A stretch of 36,387 bases of DNA from Bacillota bacterium (GTDB lineage: Bacteria; Bacillota; Clostridia; Lachnospirales; Bianqueaceae): contig JAFUJY010000304.1 in NCBI GenBank assembly GCA_017467985.1, positions 1 through 36,387 on the forward strand, read 5' to 3'. The notes beneath the pieces are model-generated. The model had not been told where the DNA came from, did not search any database, and saw nothing but the letters and a program-made list of their open reading frames with translations. The position numbers and the translations under genes are program-made. Below, piece after piece: positions 21,999-31,860 of the stretch. The first letter of the stretch is position 1. Every line of letters begins with the position of its first letter.

Positions 21999-23366
21999 AT
22001 GAAAAGTATTCGTTTTTATCTTGCACTTTATGGTGCTAAGCTTTTTTCCAAAGCTTTGGTAATGCTGCACCGCAACGGTACCCACAATCCCGGTGTTCTG
22101 GCCATGAAGATCTGCCCTGATTTTCTGACACAGATGGACAAGCCCAAGACCATTATCGGTATCACCGGTACCAATGGCAAAACAACCACTGCCAACATGG
22201 TCAACGACATTCTCATTGAGAACGGTTTTGACCCGGTGAGTAACCGTACCGGCAGCAATATTCTGGGCGGTATTGCAACTACATTAATCAACACCCTGAA
22301 CTGGAAAGGACAGGTGGTGAAGGATCTGGTGGTTCTGGAACTGGATGAACGCAGTTCTCGCCTGATTTACCCCCATGTTCACCCCACCCTTCTGCTGGTC
22401 ACCAACCTGTTTCGCGACTCTTTCAAGCGCAACGCCCATTCTGAGTTTATTTTTGATATTCTTGACCAGCACATTCCCGCTTCCACCAAGCTGGTATTGA
22501 ACGGTGATGATCTGGTCAGCGCCCGTCTGGCCCCCAATAATGACCGTGTATATTTTGGTATCGAGCCTTTGGAACATGAGGATATGACCTCTGCCAACAT
22601 CATTCAGGATATGCCTTTGTGTCCCTACTGTGGCGCTCCCATGCAGTATGAGTTCCGCCGGTATCATCATATTGGCCGCGCCCATTGTACCCGCTGTGAC
22701 TTCGGTTCTCCTGAGCTGAACTATGCTGTGACCTCTATCAAGGATGGTCGTCTTCAGATGCGGATCGGCGACCAGGTTACCGATCTGAAAATGGTAGGTT
22801 CCTCCCACGATGCCTATAACCTGGCCAGCGCAGTTGCCCTGCTCAGCGAGTTTGGTCTGACGCCCATCCAGCTGCGGGCTTCCATCGAAAAGCTGCAGAT
22901 CCTCAAGAGCCGTTATATTGATCAAGTGATTGGCGGCAAGCGCGTGATTTCTACCCTGGCTAAGGGTCAAAACCCTGTGGCCTGTTCTCGAGTATTTGAT
23001 ACCATCCGTCAGACCCCCGGGCGCAAAGCCGTGGTACTGATGATCGACGACTTGGGCGATGCCGAGACCACCAGCGAAAACATCGCTTGGCTGTACGATA
23101 CCGATTTTGAATTCTTGGTGGATGATTCCATTATACAGATCATCTGCAGCGGTCTGCGTCGTCTGGACCATCAGGTTCGCCTGCTGGTTGGCGGTGCCGA
23201 TCCTTCCCGGATCACCTGTATCCCCGAAGAGGCTGATGCTGTCAACGCGATTCGCCTGGATGATGTAGACACAATTTTCCTGCTTCATGATGTTTATACC
23301 GCATACAAGGCCAGAACGGCCGATACGATCCTAAGAGCCCGTCTTGAAGAAAAGGAGGAGGCATAA
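21999..23366 (+). CDS. murT: MurT-like Mur-ligase family protein (lipid II isoglutaminyl synthase ligase-subunit homologue)
   Basis: ATP-binding loop ITGTNGKTTTANM, Cys4 ribbon CPYCGAPMQYEFRRYHHIGRAHCTRCDF and a C-terminal DUF1727-like region ending WLYDTDFE. Confidence 0.82.
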   Translation: MKSIRFYLALYGAKLFSKALVMLHRNGTHNPGVLAMKICPDFLTQMDKPKTIIGITGTNGKTTTANMVNDILIENGFDPVSNRTGSNILGGIATTLINTLNWKGQVVKDLVVLELDERSSRLIYPHVHPTLLLVTNLFRDSFKRNAHSEFIFDILDQHIPASTKLVLNGDDLVSARLAPNNDRVYFGIEPLEHEDMTSANIIQDMPLCPYCGAPMQYEFRRYHHIGRAHCTRCDFGSPELNYAVTSIKDGRLQMRIGDQVTDLKMVGSSHDAYNLASAVALLSEFGLTPIQLRASIEKLQILKSRYIDQVIGGKRVISTLAKGQNPVACSRVFDTIRQTPGRKAVVLMIDDLGDAETTSENIAWLYDTDFEFLVDDSIIQIICSGLRRLDHQVRLLVGGADPSRITCIPEEADAVNAIRLDDVDTIFLLHDVYTAYKARTADTILRARLEEKEEA

Positions 23367-23367
23367 A

Positions 23368-24084
23368 ATGATCATCGAAATCCTCTACCCCGAAATTTGT
23401 AATCTATTTGGCGACATCGGTAATATCCAATATCTGCAGCACTGTCTGCCGGATGCTGAGTTTGTTCCCACTACTTTTGGTACTGAACCTCTGTTTGCTA
23501 CCGAGACTCCGGACTTTATTTACATGGGAACCGCTTCTGAGAAGAACCAGGAGAAAATCATTGCTATGCTGTCTCCCTATCGTGTTCGCTTAAAAGAACT
23601 GCTGGAGACCGGCGTCCCCATGCTGTTCACCGGTAATGCCGGCGAAATTCTTTTTGACTATATCGAGAACTGGGATGGTCGCAAGATCCCCGGTTTGGGC
23701 ATCGTTCCCTTCACCGCTAAGCGCTCCCAGTATACCCGTTATAACGGATTGACTCTGGCCACCTTCCACGATCAGTTCGATACTCTGGGCTTCCGCAGTC
23801 AGTTCACCTACTGGTATGGTGATAACTCTTCCTGCCCCTTTGTATCCTGTAAAAAAGGAATCGGAATGAACCCCGAATCCTCTCTGGAAGGCATCCACCT
23901 GCACAATACCATCATTACCGCTCAATTGGGCCCCATCCTGGTGAACAACCCCAAGCTGACCCGACATGTGCTGGACTCCATGGGCGCGGTTGATGCCCCC
24001 GTGGCTTTTGAAAAGGAAATCCAGGCAGCTTATGATGTACGAATGCAGGAGTTCTTAAATCCGAAAATCAAGTTCTCTATATGA
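23368..24084 (+). CDS. gatD: GatD-like (CobB/CobQ-type glutamine amidotransferase fold) partner of MurT, apparently lacking the catalytic Cys/His
   Basis: The start MIIEILYPEICNLFGDIGNIQYL follows AAGGAGGAGG, one nt after the murT stop. It is collinear with my recollection of S. aureus GatD. It reads LFTGNAGE where LTICGGYQ is expected and AQLGP where YLHGP is expected. Confidence 0.7.
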   Translation: MIIEILYPEICNLFGDIGNIQYLQHCLPDAEFVPTTFGTEPLFATETPDFIYMGTASEKNQEKIIAMLSPYRVRLKELLETGVPMLFTGNAGEILFDYIENWDGRKIPGLGIVPFTAKRSQYTRYNGLTLATFHDQFDTLGFRSQFTYWYGDNSSCPFVSCKKGIGMNPESSLEGIHLHNTIITAQLGPILVNNPKLTRHVLDSMGAVDAPVAFEKEIQAAYDVRMQEFLNPKIKFSI

Positions 24085-24342
24085 TAAAGACTGGATTGAT
24101 TTTAGAAGGGGGCGCCATGCGGGGCCCTCTTTACCGCCGGTGTCATCGCTGTTTTCATGGAAAACGGCATTACTTTTGACGGTGCCATCGGCGTCTCCGC
24201 CGGTGATGTTTTTGTCATTCGTCCGGATGCTCCTCTGCCCGTGGGCCGCACTGAAAATGATCCCACCAAGCTTGTTACAGCCTATAGCCTTGGTCGTTTC
24301 GCAGCCCTCAGGCAGCTGGATGCTTTACATGCTTTTTTATAA
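24081..24342 (+). pseudogene. Decayed patatin-family gene (frameshift plus large internal deletion)
   Basis: The ATG overlaps the gatD stop (ATGA). It encodes MIKTGLILEGGAMRG, then an extra C in GGGGCCC shifts the frame. The other frame continues LFTAGVIAVFMENGITFDGAIGVSAG and jumps directly to a C-terminal-like tail (VIRPDAPLPVGRTENDP), for about 87 codons in total. Confidence 0.7.
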
Positions 24343-24359
24343 TTTTTCTCATAAAGCTG

Positions 24360-24388
24360 TTGACAAATCAAAAAACCGGCGTTATAAT
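24360..24388 (+). promoter_or_regulatory. Consensus sigma-A promoter of the metQNI leader
   Basis: TTGACA (24360-24365), exactly 17 nt spacer, TATAAT (24383-24388). Confidence 0.8.
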
Positions 24389-24421
24389 CAAGCCAACCTG
24401 TAAGGAAAGGAGAACACGATC

Positions 24422-24541
24422 ATGATTAAGAGCTATACCACAACCGCTATGATGATGATGGAGATGTACATGTGCCGCATGTGCATGTTTTTTGATGCTT
24501 CTTTATCCGATAAGTTCTCCATCATCGAGCCCACTGCTTGA
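24422..24541 (+). CDS. 39-codon Met/Cys-rich leader peptide (attenuator ORF)
   Basis: SD AAGGAAAGGAGA, then MIKSYTTTAMMMMEMYMCRMCMFFDASLSDKFSIIEPTA. Codons 10-22 contain 8 AUG and 2 UGC. Confidence 0.75.
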   Translation: MIKSYTTTAMMMMEMYMCRMCMFFDASLSDKFSIIEPTA

Positions 24542-24571
24542 TTGATTATCCTGGCAGATCACATTGCTTAG

Positions 24572-24610
24572 AACCGGAAGACTTCATCGGAGTCTTCCGG
24601 TTTCTTTATT
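24572..24610 (+). terminator. Attenuator terminator downstream of the Met-rich leader ORF
   Basis: A 12-bp perfect stem AACCGGAAGACT (24572-24583) / AGTCTTCCGGTT (24591-24602) with a 7-nt loop, followed by a TTTCTTTATT tail. Confidence 0.85.
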
Positions 24611-24654
24611 ATACAGGGTTACAATGCATACAAACCTTAGAAAGGACCTACATC

Positions 24655-24711
24655 ATGGGCATTTATTTCGAAAAACTTGTCCGAGAAAACTTCCGTTTCG
24701 GACGAATGTGA
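24655..24711 (+). CDS. Conserved 18-codon upstream ORF, copy A (MGIYFEKLVRENFRFGRM)
   Basis: SD AAAGGA lies 8 nt upstream and the ORF ends 58 nt before the metQ ATG. A paralogous copy sits at 27286-27354, with only synonymous differences in the 14-codon core. Confidence 0.7.
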   Translation: MGIYFEKLVRENFRFGRM

Positions 24712-24769
24712 ATCACTCCTCTCACCACTGCATTCATATATGACTAACACAAAAAAGGAGATTATTATC

Positions 24770-25615
24770 ATGAAAAAATTATTCGCATTCGTACTGACCA
24801 TTATTATTGCTCTGACTACTCTGGCCGGCTGCTCCGGTTCCGACAAAATCACCATCGCTATCCCCAACGACACCACCAATGAGGCTCGCGCCCTGCTGCT
24901 GTTGGAGGATCTGGGTTATATCACCCTAAAAGAGGGTGCAGGCATCACCGCCACCATTCTGGATATCGCCCAGAACCCTTACGACATCCAGTTTAAAGAA
25001 GTAGAAGCGGCACAGCTGCCCAATGTTCTGCAAGACGTGGACTTTGCTGTAATCAACTCCAACTATGCCATTGATGCCGGTCTCAACCCCACCAGTGATG
25101 CTCTGGGCATTGAAGGTTCTTCTTCTGCCTACAGTAATATCCTGGCCGTAAAGGAAGGCAATGAAGACTCTGATATTATCAAAGCTCTGGCCGCCGCGCT
25201 CAAGAGTCAGCAGGTGGCTGATTTCATCGCCTCCGAATATGACGGCGCCGTGGTTTCTGTTGTGGATGAACCCACCGACGGCTATGATCCCACTCTCGAC
25301 TACTCCGCTCTGGCAGGTCAGACCGTTACCGTTGCTGCCTCTCCCGCACCCCACGCCGAGATTCTGGCCATCGTTAAAGAAATCCTGGCCGCTAAGGACA
25401 TCACCCTGGACATCAAAGAATTCACAGACTATGTTCAGCCCAACAACGTGGTAGAAAGCGGCGAAATCGACGCCAACTACTTCCAGCACGCCCCCTATCT
25501 GGATGATTTCAATGCCCAGAATGGTACCCACATCGTCTCTGCTGCTGTCATTCACGTGGAGCCCCTGGGCATCTATGGCGGCAAGCAGACATCTCTGGAT
25601 GCAATTAAAAAGTAA
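24770..25615 (+). CDS. metQ: Methionine ABC transporter substrate-binding lipoprotein (MetQ/NlpA family)
   Basis: The true start MKKLFAFVLTIIIALTTLAGCSGS (lipobox LAGC) follows AAAAAGGAG. The track ORF start at 24677 is an upstream extension. The body is NlpA-like. Confidence 0.9.
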   Translation: MKKLFAFVLTIIIALTTLAGCSGSDKITIAIPNDTTNEARALLLLEDLGYITLKEGAGITATILDIAQNPYDIQFKEVEAAQLPNVLQDVDFAVINSNYAIDAGLNPTSDALGIEGSSSAYSNILAVKEGNEDSDIIKALAAALKSQQVADFIASEYDGAVVSVVDEPTDGYDPTLDYSALAGQTVTVAASPAPHAEILAIVKEILAAKDITLDIKEFTDYVQPNNVVESGEIDANYFQHAPYLDDFNAQNGTHIVSAAVIHVEPLGIYGGKQTSLDAIKK

Positions 25616-25623
25616 ATAAAGCA

Positions 25624-25661
25624 CAGCAGTCCGGCAGGATTTGAGTTCTGTCGGACTGCTG
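25624..25661 (+). other. Intercistronic stem-loop between metQ and metN (no U-tract)
   Basis: A 14-bp stem CAGCAGTCCGGCAG (25624-25637) / CTGTCGGACTGCTG (25648-25661) with one G-U pair and a 10-nt loop. It lies directly before the metN SD GGAGG. It resembles the mRNA-stabilising hairpins seen after binding-protein genes. Confidence 0.6.
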
Positions 25662-25672
25662 ATGGAGGAAAT

Positions 25673-26410
25673 ATGATTGAAATTAAGAACGTATTCAAAT
25701 CCTTTGATACTGCCGAAGGCACAGTAGAGGCATTAAAAAATGTATCCCTCTCCATCCCCGACGGCGACATCTTCGGAATCATCGGCATGAGCGGTGCCGG
25801 TAAAAGCACCCTGGTCCGATGTATTAACATGCTAGAACGACCGGACTCCGGCTCTGTTATTATTGATGGCCGCGACCTGACCACCCTCTCTGAGCTTCAG
25901 CTTCGCAGCATTCGACGGGAGGTCACCATGATTTTTCAGGGCTTTAACCTGCTTATGCAGCGTAACTGCCTGAAAAATGTATGCTTTCCCCTGGAACTTT
26001 CCGGTATGAAAAAAGCAGCAGCTACCCAGCGAGCCATGGAACTTCTGGACATTGTGGGTCTTAAGGACAAGGCCAAGGCCTATCCCGCCCAGCTTTCAGG
26101 TGGGCAGCAGCAGCGCGTAGCCATCGCCCGTGCCCTGGCCACCAACCCCAAGGTATTGCTGTGCGACGAAGCTACCAGTGCCCTGGACCCCAATACCACC
26201 AATTCCATTTTGGAACTCATCCGAAACATCAATCAACAACTGGGGATTACCGTCGTCATCATCACCCATCAAATGAGCGTGGTGGAAACCGTCTGCAAAC
26301 ACGTGGCCATTTTGGATGAAGGCCAGATTGTGGAGCAAGGTGACGTCACTGAAGTTTTCTCCCAACCCAAATCCGCCGCGGCCCGCCAGCTGTTGGCCCA
26401 TCGGAGGTAA
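25673..26410 (+). CDS. metN: Methionine ABC transporter ATP-binding protein, short form without a C-terminal NIL domain
   Basis: Walker A GMSGAGKST, signature LSGGQQQRVAIARAL, Walker B VLLCDEATSALD. The protein ends at 245 aa, right after the ABC core. Confidence 0.9.
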   Translation: MIEIKNVFKSFDTAEGTVEALKNVSLSIPDGDIFGIIGMSGAGKSTLVRCINMLERPDSGSVIIDGRDLTTLSELQLRSIRREVTMIFQGFNLLMQRNCLKNVCFPLELSGMKKAAATQRAMELLDIVGLKDKAKAYPAQLSGGQQQRVAIARALATNPKVLLCDEATSALDPNTTNSILELIRNINQQLGITVVIITHQMSVVETVCKHVAILDEGQIVEQGDVTEVFSQPKSAAARQLLAHRR

Positions 26411-26414
26411 TCCC

Positions 26415-27116
26415 ATGCTAGAAAAGTTATTTTCCAACGAAACCGTACAGGAAGCCCTGCAGGTGATCCAAACTCAATTCCCCCTTGCCATCTGGGAAAC
26501 CGTGTATGTCACCCTTCTTTCTTCTTTATTTGCTTTCATCATTGGCTTGCCCTTGGGCGTATTGCTGGTGGTAGGTGAAAAAGATGGTATCATGCCCCTG
26601 CCCACCTGGTTCATGCGCACACTTAACGTAATCATCAACCTTTTCCGTTCCATTCCCTTTTTAATTTTGATGATTCTCGTTTTTCCTTTGACCCGTTTTA
26701 TTGTAGGTACTGTAGTGGGAACCACCGCTACCATCGTCCCCCTGGTCATCGCCGCAGCTCCCTTTGTGGCCCGTCTAGCCGAAACCAGTCTGCGGGAACT
26801 GAACCCCAATATTATTGAAATGGCCCAGAGTATGGGCGCCTCTCCCCTGCAGATTATTATCAAAGTCATGATTCCTGAGAGCATTCCCTCTCTGATCTCC
26901 AACGCCACCACGGCCATCACCACCATTTTAGGCTACTCTGCCATGAGCGGTATCATCGGCGGCGGCGGTTTGGGCAACATTGCCATCAATTACGGTTATT
27001 ACCGTTACAAATATCTAATTATGCTAGCCGCAGTCATTCTTCTGATTTTGCTGGTACAATTATTCCAAAGCGTGGGGACCCGCCTGGCCACCCGCTCTGA
27101 CAAACGCTTGAAATAA
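26415..27116 (+). CDS. metI: Methionine ABC transporter permease
   Basis: The start MLEKLFSNE follows GGAGG, 4 nt after the metN stop (the track start at 26316 is an extension). It has multiple TM segments and an EAA-like loop MAQSMGASPLQIIIKVMIPES. Confidence 0.88.
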   Translation: MLEKLFSNETVQEALQVIQTQFPLAIWETVYVTLLSSLFAFIIGLPLGVLLVVGEKDGIMPLPTWFMRTLNVIINLFRSIPFLILMILVFPLTRFIVGTVVGTTATIVPLVIAAAPFVARLAETSLRELNPNIIEMAQSMGASPLQIIIKVMIPESIPSLISNATTAITTILGYSAMSGIIGGGGLGNIAINYGYYRYKYLIMLAAVILLILLVQLFQSVGTRLATRSDKRLK

Positions 27117-27164
27117 ACAAAAGGCTCACGACATACTTCGTTGAGTCGTCAATATCCATACATC

Positions 27165-27196
27165 TTGGTGTCGCTTTTGCGGCACCAATTTTTTTT
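27165..27196 (+). terminator. Intrinsic terminator of metQNI
   Basis: Stem TTGGTGTCGC (27165-27174) / GCGGCACCAA (27179-27188) with a TTTT loop, followed by a T8 run. Confidence 0.85.
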
Positions 27197-27205
27197 GAAA
27201 AAGCT

Positions 27206-27270
27206 AATAATTACCTTTTGACAAAGTAGGTAATTATTGGTATAATGCATTTACCTACTAAACAAGTAGG
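27206..27270. promoter_or_regulatory. Nested inverted repeats overlapping the metY promoter (candidate repressor operator, possibly for the operon-encoded Rrf2 protein)
   Basis: IR1 is AATAATTACCT (27206-27216) / AGGTAATTATT (27228-27238) and brackets the -35 box. IR2 is AGTAGGTAA (27225-27233) / TTACCTACT (27251-27259) and brackets the -10 box. A third AGTAGG (27265-27270) forms CCTACT-AAACA-AGTAGG. Confidence 0.6.
27218..27246 (+). promoter_or_regulatory. Consensus extended -10 sigma-A promoter of the metY-cysK-nifSU-rrf2 operon
   Basis: TTGACA (27218-27223), 17 nt spacer, TGgTATAAT (TATAAT at 27241-27246). Confidence 0.8.
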
Positions 27271-27285
27271 CATGGAGGTGTAGCA

Positions 27286-27354
27286 ATGGGAAAGGATTTT
27301 GAAAAGCTCGTCAGAGAGAATTTCCGCTTCGGTCGAATGTGTCGATGTAAATAA
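27286..27354 (+). CDS. Conserved 22-codon upstream ORF, copy B (MGKDFEKLVRENFRFGRMCRCK)
   Basis: SD GGAGG lies 7 nt upstream and the ORF ends 56 nt before the metY ATG. It is a paralogue of 24655-24711, and its tail adds Cys-Arg-Cys-Lys after the shared GRM. Confidence 0.7.
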   Translation: MGKDFEKLVRENFRFGRMCRCK

Positions 27355-27410
27355 AGGTTGAATCTTTGTACTGAAAATCTCACATTTATATACGAAAGGA
27401 ACGAATCATT

Positions 27411-28709
27411 ATGTCTAACAATTATAAATTCGAAACACTTCAGCTTCATGTAGGTCAAGAAGAGGCAGATCCCGCAACAGATGCACGCGCCGTGCCGATT
27501 TATGCTACCACATCTTACGTATTTCATGACTCTGCCCATGCGGCAGCCCGCTTTGGCCTGACTGATGCCGGTAATATCTATGGCAGACTTACCAACTCTA
27601 CGCAGGATGTATTTGAAAAGCGCATTGCAGCCCTTGAGGGTGGCGTTGGGGCGTTGGCTCTTGCTTCGGGTGCGGCAGCAATTACTTATGTATTACAGGC
27701 TCTCGGGCAGAACGGCGGACATATCGTAGCCCAAAAGACGATCTACGGCGGAAGCTATAATCTGCTCGCACATACCCTTCCTAACTTTGGTATCACCGCC
27801 AGTTTTGTCAACATCCACGACCTTGCTCAGGTGGAGGCGGCGATCAAGGAGAATACGAGAGCACTCTATATTGAAACCCTCGGCAACCCCAACAGTGACA
27901 TTCCTGACATCGATGCTCTTGCAGAGCTCGCTCATAAGTACGGTCTTCCCCTTGTGGTTGACAACACCTTTGGTACGCCCTATCTCATCCGCCCTATCGA
28001 GCACGGTGCAGATATCGTCGTTCACTCCGCAACCAAGTTTATCGGCGGTCACGGAACGACCCTCGGCGGCGTAATCGTTGACTCAGGTAAGTTTGATTGG
28101 GCAGCATCGGACAAATATCCCGCTATTGCCGCTCCTAATCCTTCCTACCACGGTATATCCTTCGTCAAGGCGGCGGGTGCGGCAGCATTTGTCACCTATA
28201 TCCGCGCGATCCTGCTTCGTGACACGGGCGCATCCATTTCTCCCTTTGCGGCCTTCCTACTTTTGCAGGGAACCGAAACCTTATCCCTCCGGTTGGAACG
28301 CCACGCAGAAAATACCAAAAAGGCAGTAGAATTCCTTACAAAGCATCCACAGGTTGAGAAGGTCAATCATCCCTCCCTTGCAGACCACCCCGACCATGCG
28401 CTTTACCAGCAATATTTCCCCAACGGCGGTGCTTCCATCTTCACCTTTGAAATCAAGGGTGGCCAGGCAGAGGCACATAAGTTTATTGATAACCTCAAGA
28501 TCTTTTCACTTCTCGCCAATGTTGCGGACGTCAAAAGTCTTGTAATTCACCCCGCAACCACCACACACAGCCAGCTCTCCGAACAGGAGCTTTTAGATCA
28601 GGGGATCAAGCCAAACACCATTCGTCTTTCCATCGGAACGGAACATATCGATGATATTATTGCCGATCTGGAAAGAGGATTTGAGGCGGTAAAGAGGGCA
28701 GAATCATGA
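27411..28709 (+). CDS. metY: O-acetylhomoserine sulfhydrylase / aminocarboxypropyltransferase (PLP, Cys/Met metabolism family)
   Basis: [17 protein letters not shown] ... [12 protein letters not shown], and the PLP-lysine motif [11 protein letters not shown]. 432 aa. Confidence 0.9.
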
Positions 28710-29638
28710 GCAGAATATATACATCCGCAGATGAATTGATTGGAAAAACTCCCCTTTTGGAACTCACACATATGGAAAAGACCCTTGGACTGAAGGCAAG
28801 AATCCTGGCAAAGCTGGAATATTTTAATCCTGCAGGATCTGTCAAGGACAGAATCGCCAAGGCGATGATCGAAGACGCGGAAGCCTCGAACAAGCTTACC
28901 CCGGGCTCGGTCATCATTGAACCTACCTCGGGTAATACCGGCATCGGACTTGCATCAGTTGCCACCGCTAGGGGATACCGTGTGATACTGATAATGCCCG
29001 AAACCATGTCAGTGGAGCGCAGACAGCTTATGAAAGCCTACGGTGCAGAGCTTGTGCTTACCGAGGGTGCGAAAGGAATGAAGGGCGCAATTGCCAAGGC
29101 CGAAGAACTGGCAGCAGAAATTCCCAACAGCTTCATTCCCGGTCAGTTTGTCAATCCTGCGAACCCCCGGGCCCATCGTGAAACCACAGGTCCTGAAATT
29201 TACGAGGATACTGATGGCGATGTGGATATTTTCGTTGCAGGTGTTGGCACAGGAGGTACGATCACAGGCGTTGGTGAATATCTGAAATCCAGAAAGCCCG
29301 ACATAGAGATCGTCGCCGTTGAGCCGGCAACCTCTGCAGTTCTATCCACAGGTGTTGCCGGAGCCCATAAGATTCAAGGTATTGGTGCAGGCTTTATTCC
29401 TGACGTACTGAATACCCAAATCTATAACGAGATCATCACCGTCCAAAACGAGGATGCTTTTGCCACGGGTAAACTGATTGGTAAGAGCGAAGGCATACTT
29501 GTGGGAATTTCCTCGGGCGCTGCGGCCTATGCGGCGATCGAGCTTGCCAAGCGTTCCGAAAATGAAGGAAAGACTATTGTTGTTCTGCTCCCCGACACGG
29601 GTGACAGATATTTATCCACACCGCTGTTTGCTGACTAA
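28706..29638 (+). CDS. cysK: Cysteine synthase A (O-acetylserine sulfhydrylase)
   Basis: [10 protein letters not shown] (PLP Lys), [10 protein letters not shown] and GTGGTITG. There is a 4-nt ATGA overlap with metY. Confidence 0.92.
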
Positions 29639-29643
29639 AAAGT

Positions 29644-29679
29644 AAGCTCCGATGGTCGTTACGGCGGCTATCGGAGCTT
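29644..29679 (+). other. Intercistronic hairpin between cysK and nifS
   Basis: A 10-bp perfect stem AAGCTCCGAT (29644-29653) / ATCGGAGCTT (29670-29679) with a 16-nt loop. The downstream U-tract (TTAT) is weak, so this could be a partial terminator or a processing/stability element. Confidence 0.5.
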
Positions 29680-29705
29680 TATGAATCATATGAGAGGAGA
29701 TATTT

Positions 29706-30896
29706 ATGAGAATATACGTAGACAACGCCGCCACCACAAAAATAAGTGAGGGGGCAATAAAAACAATGATACCATACATGAATGAAATATATGGTAACCC
29801 CTCAAGCCTTCACTGCGAAGGACAGAGGGCGAATGAAGCCCTTGCGAATGCCCGTGAACGCATTGCTAGGCTTCTGGGCTGCGAGCCAAGAGAGATCACC
29901 TTTACCTCGGGCGGCAGTGAAGCTGATAATCAAGCCATTCTCTCCGCCGCAAGACTTGGCGAGAGAAAAGGAAAAAAGCATATCGTATCCACTGCTTTTG
30001 AGCATCATGCCGTTCTGCACACCCTTGAAAAGCTGGAAAAGCAAGGCTTTGAGGTTACACTTCTTGACGTTCACGAAAATGGACTTGTAAGTGCTGAGCA
30101 GGTATACAATGCGATTCGTGAGGATACCTGCCTGGTGACTGTCATGTACGCCAACAACGAAATCGGTACGATTCAACCCATATCTGAGATTGGAGCAGTT
30201 TGTCACGAAAAAGGTGTAATCTTTCACACCGATGCGGTGCAAGCGGTGGGACATTTACATATCAATGTCCAGGAGCAGCATATCGATATGCTTTCTCTGT
30301 CTGCACACAAATTTCATGGCCCCAAAGGAATTGGTGTACTCTATGCAAGAAAAGGAATACCGCTGACCACTCTGATCGAGGGCGGTGCCCAAGAGAGAGG
30401 CAAGCGTGCCGGAACAGAAAACATCCCTGCAATCATGGGTATGGCCACCGCATTGGAGGAATCGTGCGCCAAGATCCACGAAAACACCCTCAAACTCACT
30501 GCCCTTCGTGACAAGCTGATTCTTGGCCTTTCTCAAATCCCCCATTCTGCCCTTAACGGAGATCATGAACACAGGCTGCCGTCCAATGTCAGCTTCTGCT
30601 TTGAAGGAATTGAAGGCGAATCACTCCTTCTGCTTCTTGACGACAAAGGAATCTGCGCTTCCTCAGGCTCGGCGTGTACTTCAGGCTCCCTCGACCCTAG
30701 CCACGTACTCCTCGCCATAGGCAGAGTACACGACGTTGCCCACGGCTCTTTGCGCCTATCCTTGTCAGAGGAAAATACCGAGGCCGAACTAGAATATATT
30801 CTCGAGTCTGTAAAAGAAGTTGTAGGATATCTTCGCAGTATCTCTCCCATTTGGAGAGACCTCTGCGAAGGCAAAAAGAATTTTATTTTGAAATGA
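29706..30896 (+). CDS. nifS: Cysteine desulfurase (NifS/IscS class)
   Basis: TSGGSEADN, PLP Lys in SAHKFHGPKGIG and the catalytic Cys loop SSGSACTSG. 396 aa. Confidence 0.92.
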   Translation: MRIYVDNAATTKISEGAIKTMIPYMNEIYGNPSSLHCEGQRANEALANARERIARLLGCEPREITFTSGGSEADNQAILSAARLGERKGKKHIVSTAFEHHAVLHTLEKLEKQGFEVTLLDVHENGLVSAEQVYNAIREDTCLVTVMYANNEIGTIQPISEIGAVCHEKGVIFHTDAVQAVGHLHINVQEQHIDMLSLSAHKFHGPKGIGVLYARKGIPLTTLIEGGAQERGKRAGTENIPAIMGMATALEESCAKIHENTLKLTALRDKLILGLSQIPHSALNGDHEHRLPSNVSFCFEGIEGESLLLLLDDKGICASSGSACTSGSLDPSHVLLAIGRVHDVAHGSLRLSLSEENTEAELEYILESVKEVVGYLRSISPIWRDLCEGKKNFILK

Positions 30897-30906
30897 GGTA
30901 TATAAA

Positions 30907-31351
30907 ATGGCATTATATAGTGAAAAAGTAATGGATCATTTCCCGCAACCCGAGAAACGTGGGGGTCATAGAAAACGCTGACGGTATCGGCGAGGTTGGC
31001 AATGCCAAATGCGGAGATATTATGAAGATATATCTAAAAATTGAAAACGATATTATCATCGATGTGAAATTTGAGACTTTCGGCTGCGGCTCTGCCATTG
31101 CTTCAAGCTCTATGGCAACCGAGCTAATCAAAGGCAAACCCGTGTCTGAGGCCCTTGCACTAACAAATAAAGCGGTGGTTGAAGCTCTCGACGGCCTGCC
31201 TGTCCACAAGCTTCACTGCTCCGTGCTTGCCGAAGAAGCCATCAAGGCGGCACTACAGGACTACTATGACAGAAACGGCATCGAATATGATCACGAAATG
31301 TCTTCCGATTGCCTATCTTGCGGACATTGTTGTTCCCAAAAACTTGAATAA
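30907..31351 (+). pseudogene. nifU: NifU/IscU-type Fe-S scaffold with an apparent +1 frameshift (extra C in the CCC run at 30942-30944); possibly a sequencing artefact
   Basis: ATG at 30907 gives MALYSEKVMDHF and then stops at 30979-30981. Removing one C restores HFRNPRNVGVIENADGIGEVGNAKCGD, which continues into the track ORF (30959-31351) with the conserved scaffold Cys residues. Confidence 0.7.
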
Positions 31352-31372
31352 CCTACCAACTTGTGGTATAAT
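31344..31372 (+). promoter_or_regulatory. Candidate internal promoter for the Rrf2 regulator gene
   Basis: TTGAAT (31344-31349), 17 nt spacer, TGgTATAAT (TATAAT at 31367-31372). It overlaps the nifU stop codon. Confidence 0.5.
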
Positions 31373-31401
31373 TAGAAAAACAATGCTTGAAGGAGTAAGT
31401 T

Positions 31402-31812
31402 ATGATCATATCAACAAGAGGAAGATACGCTCTGCGCGTAATGCTTGACCTTGCCGAGAACGGAGGCGACGACTATATCGCTATGAAAAAAATAGCCGAA
31501 AGACAAGGAATTTCACTCAAATATCTGGAACGCATTTTGCCCGTGCTGACACAAAATGAGATCATTGAGGGTGTTCAGGGCAAAGGCGGCGGTTATCGTT
31601 TGACACGTAAGCCCGAAGAATACAAGATTGGCGAAATTCTCCGCTTAACCGAGGGCGATCTTGCACCCGTATCCTGCCTTGAATGTGATGCCAAGCCCTG
31701 TGAAAGGAGCGGTGAGTGCCGCACGCTTCCTATGTGGACGAAGCTTCACGATATGATCGGAGATTATCTTGACAGTGTCACCCTTGCCGATCTTCTCTGT
31801 GGAAGGGCTTGA
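31402..31812 (+). CDS. Rrf2-family transcriptional regulator (CymR/IscR-like, three-Cys cluster ligands)
   Basis: MIISTRGRYALRVMLDLA, the wHTH ISLKYLERIL and GKGGGYRL, plus the Cys triad CLECDAKPCERSGEC. Confidence 0.9.
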   Translation: MIISTRGRYALRVMLDLAENGGDDYIAMKKIAERQGISLKYLERILPVLTQNEIIEGVQGKGGGYRLTRKPEEYKIGEILRLTEGDLAPVSCLECDAKPCERSGECRTLPMWTKLHDMIGDYLDSVTLADLLCGRA

Positions 31813-31818
31813 TCTTGC

Positions 31819-31860
31819 AGAAGAGGCTATGAAAAAATGAATTTTTTCATAGCCTCTTCT
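31819..31860. terminator. Bidirectional terminator / 20-bp palindrome between the rrf2 gene (+) and the GH2 gene (-)
   Basis: AGAAGAGGCTATGAAAAAAT (31819-31838) / ATTTTTTCATAGCCTCTTCT (31841-31860), a perfect complement. Confidence 0.75.

Follow-up and report, generated by a model that had tools for sequence, protein, structure and literature searches.

A conserved leader-peptide family upstream of methionine and cysteine operons of gut Clostridia: candidate translational attenuators

Methionine and cysteine genes of Firmicutes are textbook targets of S-adenosylmethionine (SAM) riboswitches, T-boxes and CymR-type repressors; to our knowledge, a conserved leader peptide has not so far been part of this picture. 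In plants, a committed enzyme of methionine synthesis is controlled by its own nascent chain, since SAM induces arrest at the MTO1 region of CGS1, within the main open reading frame (ORF), and decay of the mRNA then turns expression off. Among bacteria, the polycysteine short ORFs (sORFs) of mycobacteria form a Cys "ribulon," in which ribosomes stalled at Cys codons block a structure that sequesters the ribosome-binding site (Canestrari et al., bioRxiv 10.1101/834739). Arrest at a stop codon is the mode of TnaC, SpeFL and PepNL (PMC8429421; PMC11890864); the last of these, a peptide of 14 residues from E. coli, arrests at UGA by blocking release factor 2 (RF2), and Trp-tRNA relieves the arrest (PMC11890864). 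Here we describe two short upstream ORFs (uORFs) on contig JAFUJY010000304.1 of a Bacillota bacterium (assembly GCA_017467985.1; 36,387 nucleotides [nt], the whole of which we call the window), one preceding metQ and the other metY, together with the family of peptides to which they belong, and we consider how they may control the genes that follow them.

Both uORFs lie at the coordinates, and before the genes, that an initial annotation of this DNA had assigned to them, as the sequence itself, a pattern search and NCBIfam assignments all agree. The features concerned, with the Shine-Dalgarno (SD) motifs of the uORFs as read from the sequence, are:

24655–24711, + strand: uORF copy A, 18 codons and UGA, encoding MGIYFEKLVRENFRFGRM; the fixed 18-residue core with no tail, upstream of metQNI
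27286–27354, + strand: uORF copy B, 22 codons and UAA, encoding MGKDFEKLVRENFRFGRMCRCK; upstream of metY-cysK-nifS-nifU-rrf2
24640–24646, + strand: SD-like GAAAGGA of uORF A, 8 nt 5′ of its ATG
27274–27279, + strand: SD GGAGGU of uORF B
24770–27116, + strand: metQ-metN-metI, methionine ATP-binding cassette importer (NCBIfam), with metQ at 24770–25615
24755–24772, + strand: SD of metQ, AAGGAG (24755–24760), and its start codon (24770–24772)
27411–31812, + strand: metY-cysK-nifS-nifU-rrf2 operon (NCBIfam), with metY at 27411–28709 and an Rrf2-family regulator at 31402–31812

A degenerate back-translated pattern for EKLVRENFRFGRM matches the window twice, at copies A and B, and has no match in 100 shuffles. 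Copy A reads ATG GGC ATT TAT TTC GAA AAA CTT GTC CGA GAA AAC TTC CGT TTC GGA CGA ATG TGA, and the 13 core codons that it has in common with copy B contain seven synonymous differences; these changes, a switch between the Arg codons CGA and AGA among them, point to selection on the peptide. The tail after the core had been described as the only variable part. The tails do differ, but so do residues 3 and 4, which are I-Y in copy A and K-D in copy B. The spacer between uORF and gene is 58 nt for copy A (24712–24769) and 56 nt for copy B (27355–27410).

To define the family, one genome per species was scanned with the pattern GARAAYTTYMGNTTYGGNMGNATG (ENFRFGRM), which gave at least 120 loci; the family figures reported here are among the matches listed. 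These include 97 short uORFs of the same design, of which 94 are distinct, and all counts out of 94 refer to this set. An independent metagenome scan, anchored on codons 5–12 (FEKLVREN), gave 38 distinct uORFs, and the family comprises at least about 130 distinct members from Clostridia genomes and metagenomes. The hosts are Lachnospiraceae, Oscillospiraceae, Ruminococcaceae, Faecalibacterium, Acetatifactor, Mediterraneibacter, Mogibacterium and other Clostridia, with Mediterraneibacter agrestimuris DSM 111629 (locus L056) among the cultured carriers. The first downstream gene in the 94 loci, as assigned by BLASTP against the window proteins, is metY in 66 and metQ in 17; cysK, nifU and rrf2 also occur in this position. 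The gene order of homologous loci is the same as in the window, metY-cysK-(nifS-nifU)-rrf2 being the usual arrangement.

Both scans return a core of 18 residues, M-x3-F-x2-L-[VLI]-R-E-N-F-R-[FNY]-G-[RVLI]-M. Members from the genome scan begin with M and three or four variable residues, followed by F-x-x-L-[VLI]-R-E-N-F-R-F-G-R-M; in all of them the start codon lies 17–18 codons before M18, which is thus held at a fixed distance, and in 87 of the 94 an SD-like motif of at least 4 nt precedes the start. At positions outside the search pattern, residue 10 is Arg in 94/94, encoded by all six Arg codons, and residue 8 is Leu in 92/94, encoded by six Leu codons. All six Arg codons are likewise used at R14, and four Gly codons are found at G16. 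In the metagenome set, F13, G16 and M18 are invariant and R14 is present in 37/38 (five codons), while position 15 is F, N or Y and position 17 is R, V, L or I. Synonymous sites of codons 5–11 vary freely. Since Arg, Leu and Gly codons vary synonymously, the peptide itself is under selection. The fourteen consecutive positions from F5 to M18 are conserved at the amino-acid level in a peptide of fixed length, which is the pattern expected of arrest peptides, whose conservation covers the ~10–17 residues nearest the stall site. Constraint of another kind is seen at R17, which is CGA in 92 of the 94 FRFGRM members (24703–24705 and 27334–27336 in the window); R10 is mostly AGA. Pairing with CACAUUCG explains part of the CGA bias, and slow decoding of CGA is a possible alternative cause.

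As far as we could find, the family is undescribed. Rfam gave no match in the whole window at the gathering threshold and, at E ≤ 10 on 24300–27450, only two chance microRNA matches (E about 4–5). Four family peptides and the leader peptide encoded upstream of copy A (see below) matched no Pfam-A or NCBIfam family at E ≤ 10. Only 2 of 10 family peptides are present in a collection of 15 billion proteins, both without a name. Full-text literature searches for motif strings and keywords retrieved no description of the family, and the motif is absent from the supplementary files of the small-protein survey by Sberro et al.

The uORFs are also complementary to the start region of the gene that they precede. 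The SD region of metY-type leaders shows striking conservation, reading ACGAAAGGAA(A/G)U, and is preceded at 5–15 nt by a CACAUU(C/U) box. The SD region is the reverse complement of codons 12–16 (AAY UUC CGN UUC G), and the CACAUU box of codons 17–19 (CGA AUG UG). Minimum free energy (MFE) folds of single leaders repeatedly give one long hairpin joining uORF and SD, which is seen in most metY-type homologues. In the window, the pairing elements are:

27322–27341, + strand: 5′ arm of the copy B hairpin, codons F13 to C19, with UUCC (27322–27325), UUCG (27328–27331) and GAAUGUG (27335–27341)
27381–27401, + strand: 3′ arm of the copy B hairpin, with CACAUUU (27381–27387), CGAA (27393–27396) and GGAA of the metY SD (27398–27401)
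24716–24720, + strand: candidate anti-SD (CUCCU) of copy A, located 5 nt past the stop codon; one fold pairs it with AGGAG at 24756–24760

In copy B, UUCC pairs with GGAA, UUCG with CGAA and GAAUGUG with CACAUUU, and the MFE structure is identical to the centroid. In copy A, the CUCCU and AGGAG elements and the C-rich, G-poor stretch after the uORF are all present as initially annotated; CUCCU is the best local partner of the SD, and a ribosome that holds M18 in its P site, or one terminating at the stop codon, would be expected to cover it.

Several comparisons point to joint evolution of the two arms within each leader. Duplexes between cognate arms have an energy of −14.8 kcal/mol, versus −11.9 kcal/mol for non-cognate arms (permutation p ≤ 1e-4); the test is significant for metY leaders alone (p ≤ 1e-4) and for metQ leaders alone (p = 0.0014), and a reversed-arm control gives a difference of only 0.4 kcal/mol. 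The spacer complement to CGAAUGUGN is 6.0 nt long versus 5.2 nt in shuffled spacers (p = 1.7e-6). Codon choice in the uORF follows the sequence near the SD: the third base of N12 goes with position SD+3 (AAC with GGAAGU, AAU with GGAAAU; Fisher p = 0.012), UUU or UUC at F15 goes with AAAACG or GAAACG, respectively, and AGA at R14 goes with AUCUGAAAGG. The helix explains both the preference for CGA at R17 and the UG with which codon 19 usually starts, and, of the three stop codons, UGA alone preserves the pairing. At least three registers are used (UUC-CGN, UUU-CGU and UUC-AGR classes), with loops of varying length; in a gap-free pseudo-alignment at fixed register, pairing reaches 79.9%, versus at most 60.5% in slid registers. 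The uORF:SD helix is conserved with limited covariation. As covariation in the fixed register is not significant, we rely on the comparison of cognate with non-cognate duplexes and on the reversed-arm control. The leader-SD pairing that defines translational attenuation is present in the family and is weak in metQ-type leaders, copy A included.

The position of the helix suggests how a ribosome on the uORF might affect it. The SD guanines of metY leaders have 79% of their dominant partners between −18 and +15 nt, counted from the first base of M18, which is roughly the span that a ribosome holding M18 in its P site would cover. We modeled SD accessibility by calculating partition functions with the ribosome span blocked and taking the median probability of an unpaired SD, with the following results:

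metY leaders, free mRNA: 0.15
metY leaders, ribosome at M18: 0.60
metY leaders, ribosome at N12: 0.75
metY leaders, ribosome at L8: 0.20

With the ribosome at M18, the modeled accessibility rises from 0.49 to 0.84 for copy B and from 0.33 to 0.66 for copy A.

After M18, the peptides either stop directly or continue into a variable tail, the C-terminal extension ranging from 0 to 34 residues. Tail-less members number 28 of 94, and their stop codon is UGA in 26 of the 28. Where a tail is present it is rich in cysteine, which makes up 94 of the 259 residues (36%) at the first five tail positions, is encoded by both UGU and UGC, and is commonest at position 19 and above all at position 21. Many members contain C-x-C or CC(C), the tails in the window being CRCK and none. 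Codon 19 is UGN in 77/93 (UGU 26, UGA 26, UGC 19, UGG 6). The Met and Cys codons that the initial annotation had singled out at the end of the two uORFs are thus a real feature of the family, and what holds in general, regardless of the gene that follows, is that Cys codons come after an invariant Met codon.

Two other explanations for the 3′ ends of the uORFs were considered and rejected. Selenocysteine insertion or read-through at UGA would require a conserved in-frame extension, of which we found none, and some members have tandem UGA-UAA stops. A Cys-rich tail could also belong to the precursor of a peptide of the ribosomally made, post-translationally modified class (RiPP); 30% of members have no tail, and the neighboring genes are metabolic and do not encode maturases.

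Terminators are rare after the uORFs. Spacers in most of the family measure roughly 45–62 nt; a terminator scan found none in the spacer of either copy, and among 74 homologues with short spacers a terminator-like hairpin occurs in 1, in keeping with the earlier statement that no intrinsic terminator intervenes. A minority with spacers of 145–168 nt carry terminator-like hairpins. Among long-leader relatives, one example is GC-rich GGGGGACUUUUCCCCC-UUUU in locus L126 and its relatives. L126 is also one of a sister subfamily from the metagenome scan (loci L125–L236, e.g., L126, L127 and L176) of the form M-x3-FEKLVRENFRNG[VRLI]M, with a ...FRNG[VR]M core, longer and very Cys-rich tails (CLCCCLC, RSFCLC, CCCCGR) and leaders of 50–250 nt. 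GC-rich hairpins that resemble terminators occur in some of its members, and others pair the metY SD region with the Cys-codon tail.

Taken together, these observations lead us to favor, with a probability of about 0.55, a model in which both uORFs belong to a family of cis-acting leader peptides that control the next gene (metY, metQ, occasionally cysK or nifU) by translational attenuation. The support in hand consists of the family itself, selection at the peptide level, Cys enrichment after M18, complementarity to the SD region and the lack of terminators in the short-spacer majority. In the free mRNA, the hairpin would hide the downstream SD. A ribosome dwelling with M18 in or near the P site would melt the hairpin and allow a 30S subunit to load on the SD. 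The ribosome might dwell there until Cys-tRNA arrives at codons 19–21, Met-tRNA at codon 18, which is invariant, or RF2 at UGA, and a scarcity of sulfur amino acids, sensed through charged tRNA, would thus raise expression. Since a stall would turn expression on, the polarity would be right for biosynthesis and uptake genes that answer a shortage. Among the outputs that the initial annotation had offered, SD unmasking is the likely one, given the conserved uORF:SD helix and the modeled gain in accessibility. The tail would then be a general Cys-sensing add-on and not a label of the operon product.

What would the conserved core contribute? Fourteen residues correspond approximately to the distance from the peptidyl-transferase center to the uL4/uL22 constriction of the exit tunnel, and the nascent chain F5...L8-x-R10-E-N-F-R-x-G-x-M18 would span these two sites. 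One possibility, raised in the initial annotation and taken up in the model that we favor, is that the core is a pause sensitizer, slowing the ribosome such that one Met and one to three Cys codons suffice as a sensor. The other casts it as an arrest peptide that depends on a ligand or blocks RF2, along the lines of TnaC, SpeFL or PepNL.

Several points weigh against translational attenuation as we have drawn it. That the uORF is translated, where the ribosome pauses and which signal it answers are all inferences. As 28 of the 94 members have no tail and thus no Cys codon, sensing of Cys-tRNA would not be the whole story, and a single Met codon is a weak sensor. The metQ-type leaders, copy A included, sequester the SD weakly (median 0.39 unpaired in free mRNA), and the predicted SD partner in these leaders is mostly codons 8–9 (CUCCUC) or 4–5, which are outside a ribosome at M18; copy A itself has a diverse ensemble and folds no better than shuffled sequences do (z = −0.24). 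The helix, although conserved in fixed register, does not covary significantly, its covariation score being reached by 83 of 500 shuffles, and RNAalifold found no consensus structure in a MAFFT alignment of 71 leaders. The test of cognate arms, like the other tests of pairing, takes no account of phylogeny. Finally, conservation of codons 12–19 could partly reflect a constraint on the RNA and not on the peptide, as the R17 codon suggests.

Of the alternatives, the one with the most in its favor, although we regard it as considerably less likely than translational attenuation driven by tRNA supply, is that the peptide is a ligand-sensing arrest peptide resembling TnaC and SpeFL, whose chain would act with the tunnel to bind a free molecule that reports sulfur status; arrest at M18 or codon 19 would then unmask the SD, with the Cys tail as an optional second input. 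O-acetylserine, O-acetylhomoserine, Cys, Met, homocysteine and SAM are candidate ligands. A core of fourteen conserved residues at fixed length is unlike classical leaders and typical of arrest peptides, the tail-less members that end in UGA look functional without a hungry Cys codon, and the occurrence of the same core with different outputs (mostly the SD helix, and terminator-like hairpins in some long leaders) fits a sensor module. However, no ligand can be inferred from the sequence and, because a stall would mean expression, the ligand would have to signal sulfur shortage, which leaves fewer candidates. Moreover, sensing of tRNA is a simpler explanation for the enrichment of Cys in the tails, by inspection there is no similarity to TnaC or SpeFL, and in composition the family has no general rut-like (Rho utilization) spacer.

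It was also proposed, in the initial annotation, that the tail encodes the amino acids supplied by the downstream operon and is tuned operon by operon, with Met-stop ahead of the Met importer and Met-Cys-Arg-Cys ahead of the genes for Met, Cys and Fe-S biosynthesis, which fits both copies in the window. The annotation had added that tails varying at random with respect to the operon in homologues would refute this idea, and between metY and metQ operons that is what the 94 distinct homologues revealed (Fisher p = 0.41):

metY downstream: Cys-containing tail, 43; no Cys or no tail, 23
metQ downstream: Cys-containing tail, 9; no Cys or no tail, 8

Nine lineages have Cys-containing tails (CRC, C, RCFC, WRCHTD and others) before the Met importer, that is, 9 of 17 metQ leaders, and in eighteen a tail-less uORF precedes metY. 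What remains is a weak tendency for metY operons with a Cys-tailed uORF to contain cysK (28/30 versus 9/15 without such a tail; p = 0.011, uncorrected for relatedness in a set with several near relatives), and even here eight tail-less uORFs, in a group where several cases are near-identical, precede metY-cysK. The neat match between tail and operon in the window is not supported as a family rule and is at most a weak tendency; as an explanation of the family, it is improbable and is largely refuted by the homologues. A trans-acting micropeptide seems more doubtful still. The released product of 18–22 residues might act on the Rrf2 repressor, MetY or MetNIQ, with the position of the uORF serving co-expression, and this would agree with conservation at the amino-acid level and with steady co-location with one regulon; it sits poorly with a genome that has several copies, each directly 5′ of another operon (as in this window), with the variable length of the C terminus, with a coding sequence that pairs with its cognate SD and with the narrow range of spacer lengths. 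Rho-dependent attenuation, in which arrest of the ribosome as it finishes the uORF would cover a rut site within a C-rich spacer as in tnaC, finds some support in the spacer of copy A, where 24712–24755 contains 14 C and 2 G in 44 nt. This composition proved peculiar to copy A: the spacer of copy B is not C-rich, those of the family are A-rich with C roughly equal to G (A 42%, C 18%, G 15%, T 24%), and most are short before the next ORF begins, which makes Rho a very unlikely output. Least probable of all is an RNA-only element, riboswitch-like or protein-binding, in which the reading frame is incidental. The nucleotide constraints at R17 and codon 19 and the conserved SD hairpin are what such an element would predict, but it would not account for the free use of Arg, Leu and Gly codons at positions 8, 10, 14 and 16, the synonymous freedom of codons 5–11 or a start codon and SD at fixed distance, and it has no Rfam match even at the permissive threshold.

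The uORFs are not the only control elements at these loci. Upstream of both copies, and at the end of the metY operon, the window contains:

27211–27273 region, + strand: promoter of copy B, sigma-70 type, with −35 at 27218–27223 and extended −10 at 27241–27246; 12/12 match to consensus
27211–27233: palindrome O1, 7-9-7, TTACCTT-N9-TAGGTAA, over the −35
27251–27273: palindrome O2, 7-9-7, TTACCTA-N9-TAGGCAT, at the transcript start
24422–24603, + strand: first tier at metQ, consisting of a leader ORF (24422–24541) and an intrinsic terminator (24571–24603), with a promoter at 24360–24388
31819–31860: terminator after the metY-cysK-nifS-nifU-rrf2 operon

A consensus promoter flanked by two 7-9-7 palindromes (TTACCTA-N9-TAGGTAA) is found in most metY loci, copy B included, and rrf2 lies within the operon in most homologues. 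O1 and O2 are probably the operators of a repressor, putatively the Rrf2 regulator that the last gene of the operon (31402–31812) encodes. The first tier at metQ has a leader ORF of 39 codons, MIKSYTTTAMMMMEMYMCRMCMFFDASLSDKFSIIEPTA (beginning MIKSYTTTAMMMMEMYMCRMCMFFD), with 9 internal Met and 2 Cys codons, and a terminator of 15 bp; its promoter matches the consensus, and the region 24360–24610 folds with z = −5.3. A Met- and Cys-rich leader ORF of this kind (..MMMEMCMWTC.MCM..SDVFS..) and a strong terminator lie 5′ of the uORF in 17–19 of the 94 loci, before metY as well as metQ. The two-tier arrangement noted at metQ by the initial annotation is therefore recurrent.

We also note several features of individual loci. 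In a number of them (L013, L023, L048, L068, L075, L077, L085, L107), the uORF directly follows the metI stop codon and precedes metQ; in these genomes it thus lies inside a polycistronic metNI-uORF-metQ message and not in a 5′ leader. In locus L076, the uORF is followed by an SD and the first metY codons, and the next intact called gene is rrf2; this looks like a deletion remnant in which the leader was kept. At loci L132/L125 and L208/L226, family uORFs precede genes whose products are a protein of the URO-D family, possibly a methyltransferase, and a LanC-like one; these may extend the regulon beyond metY, metQ, cysK and nifU. In the window, murT- and gatD-like genes, encoding subunits of lipid II isoglutaminyl synthase, occupy 21999–24084, 5′ of the metQ leader, and are apparently unrelated to the sulfur regulon.

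Our findings place one small peptide family, invisible to gene callers, before metY, metQ, cysK and nifU in major gut taxa, namely many Lachnospiraceae, Oscillospiraceae and Ruminococcaceae and their relatives. If the core does modulate the ribosome, it would be a new sequence class among the few natural arrest peptides, and the family would represent a compact system, open to experiment, with a nascent chain and between one and three hungry codons acting together. One can go further and speculate that sulfur amino-acid metabolism has, in this core, a new bacterial arrest peptide that either senses a small molecule or is gated by aminoacyl-tRNA. Arrest would occur at M18 with UGN in the A site and would be released by Cys-tRNA (cognate at UGU and UGC, perhaps near-cognate at UGA as for PepNL) or set by a free metabolite reporting sulfur status, and one sensor module would be attached to SD-helix or terminator outputs across gut Clostridia. 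We regard this extended proposal as less likely than not, but realistic. In practical terms, the family provides an annotation rule for the sulfur regulon of gut Clostridia and a candidate Cys/Met-responsive expression switch.

How do these uORFs compare with described regulators? Regulatory codons for the amino acid concerned are also found in the short leader ORFs trpL, hisL and uORFC-8-2, the last with Cys codons before cysS (PMC8632094). The first-tier element at 24422–24603 resembles such classical attenuators (trpL, hisL). Unlike them, the 18-codon uORFs have neither a run of regulatory codons, with one Met and 0–2 Cys codons each, nor a terminator and antiterminator, and their non-regulatory residues are strongly conserved, unlike those of classical leaders. 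With TnaC and SpeFL they have in common a conserved chain of tunnel length and a position at or beside the stop codon; since some TnaC and SpeFL homologues stall at a sense codon rather than at the stop, even the alternation of tailed and tail-less members has a parallel. However, TnaC and SpeFL respond to Trp or ornithine, serve catabolic or decarboxylase operons and act through Rho termination over long spacers, whereas here we find a spacer of about 57 nt with an SD helix and no Rho terminator or rut site in a long spacer. PepNL is likewise very short and ends in UGA, and its relief by a near-cognate aminoacyl-tRNA offers a possible logic for the interchange of UGA and UGY at codon 19; the sequences are unrelated, and arrest is here only proposed. 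The MTO1 region of CGS1 is another nascent peptide that controls methionine synthesis, but there a stall turns expression off, while the geometry here implies that it would turn expression on.

Two systems are closer. Like the mycobacterial polycysteine sORFs, the family consists of short ORFs with Cys codons 5′ of cysteine and sulfur genes, and one sensor serves several operons. The sORFs are leaderless and have a consecutive Cys tract without a conserved peptide, whereas the uORFs of Clostridia have their own SD and 5′ untranslated region, an 18-residue core and, in 30% of members, no Cys at all. Like the leaders of cat-86, cmlA and ermC, they have a 3′ part that forms the 5′ arm of a hairpin hiding the SD, with no terminator, and the opening of that hairpin by a ribosome stalled at a defined leader codon, a feature of the cat-86, cmlA and ermC leaders, is what we propose here. 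Those leaders respond to ribosome-bound antibiotics and precede resistance genes, while the genes here serve biosynthesis and uptake, the signal is presumed to be an amino acid, and there is no sequence similarity. The closest relatives of the family are therefore most likely the mycobacterial polycysteine sORFs in logic and the cat/cmlA/ermC-type translational attenuator in anatomy.

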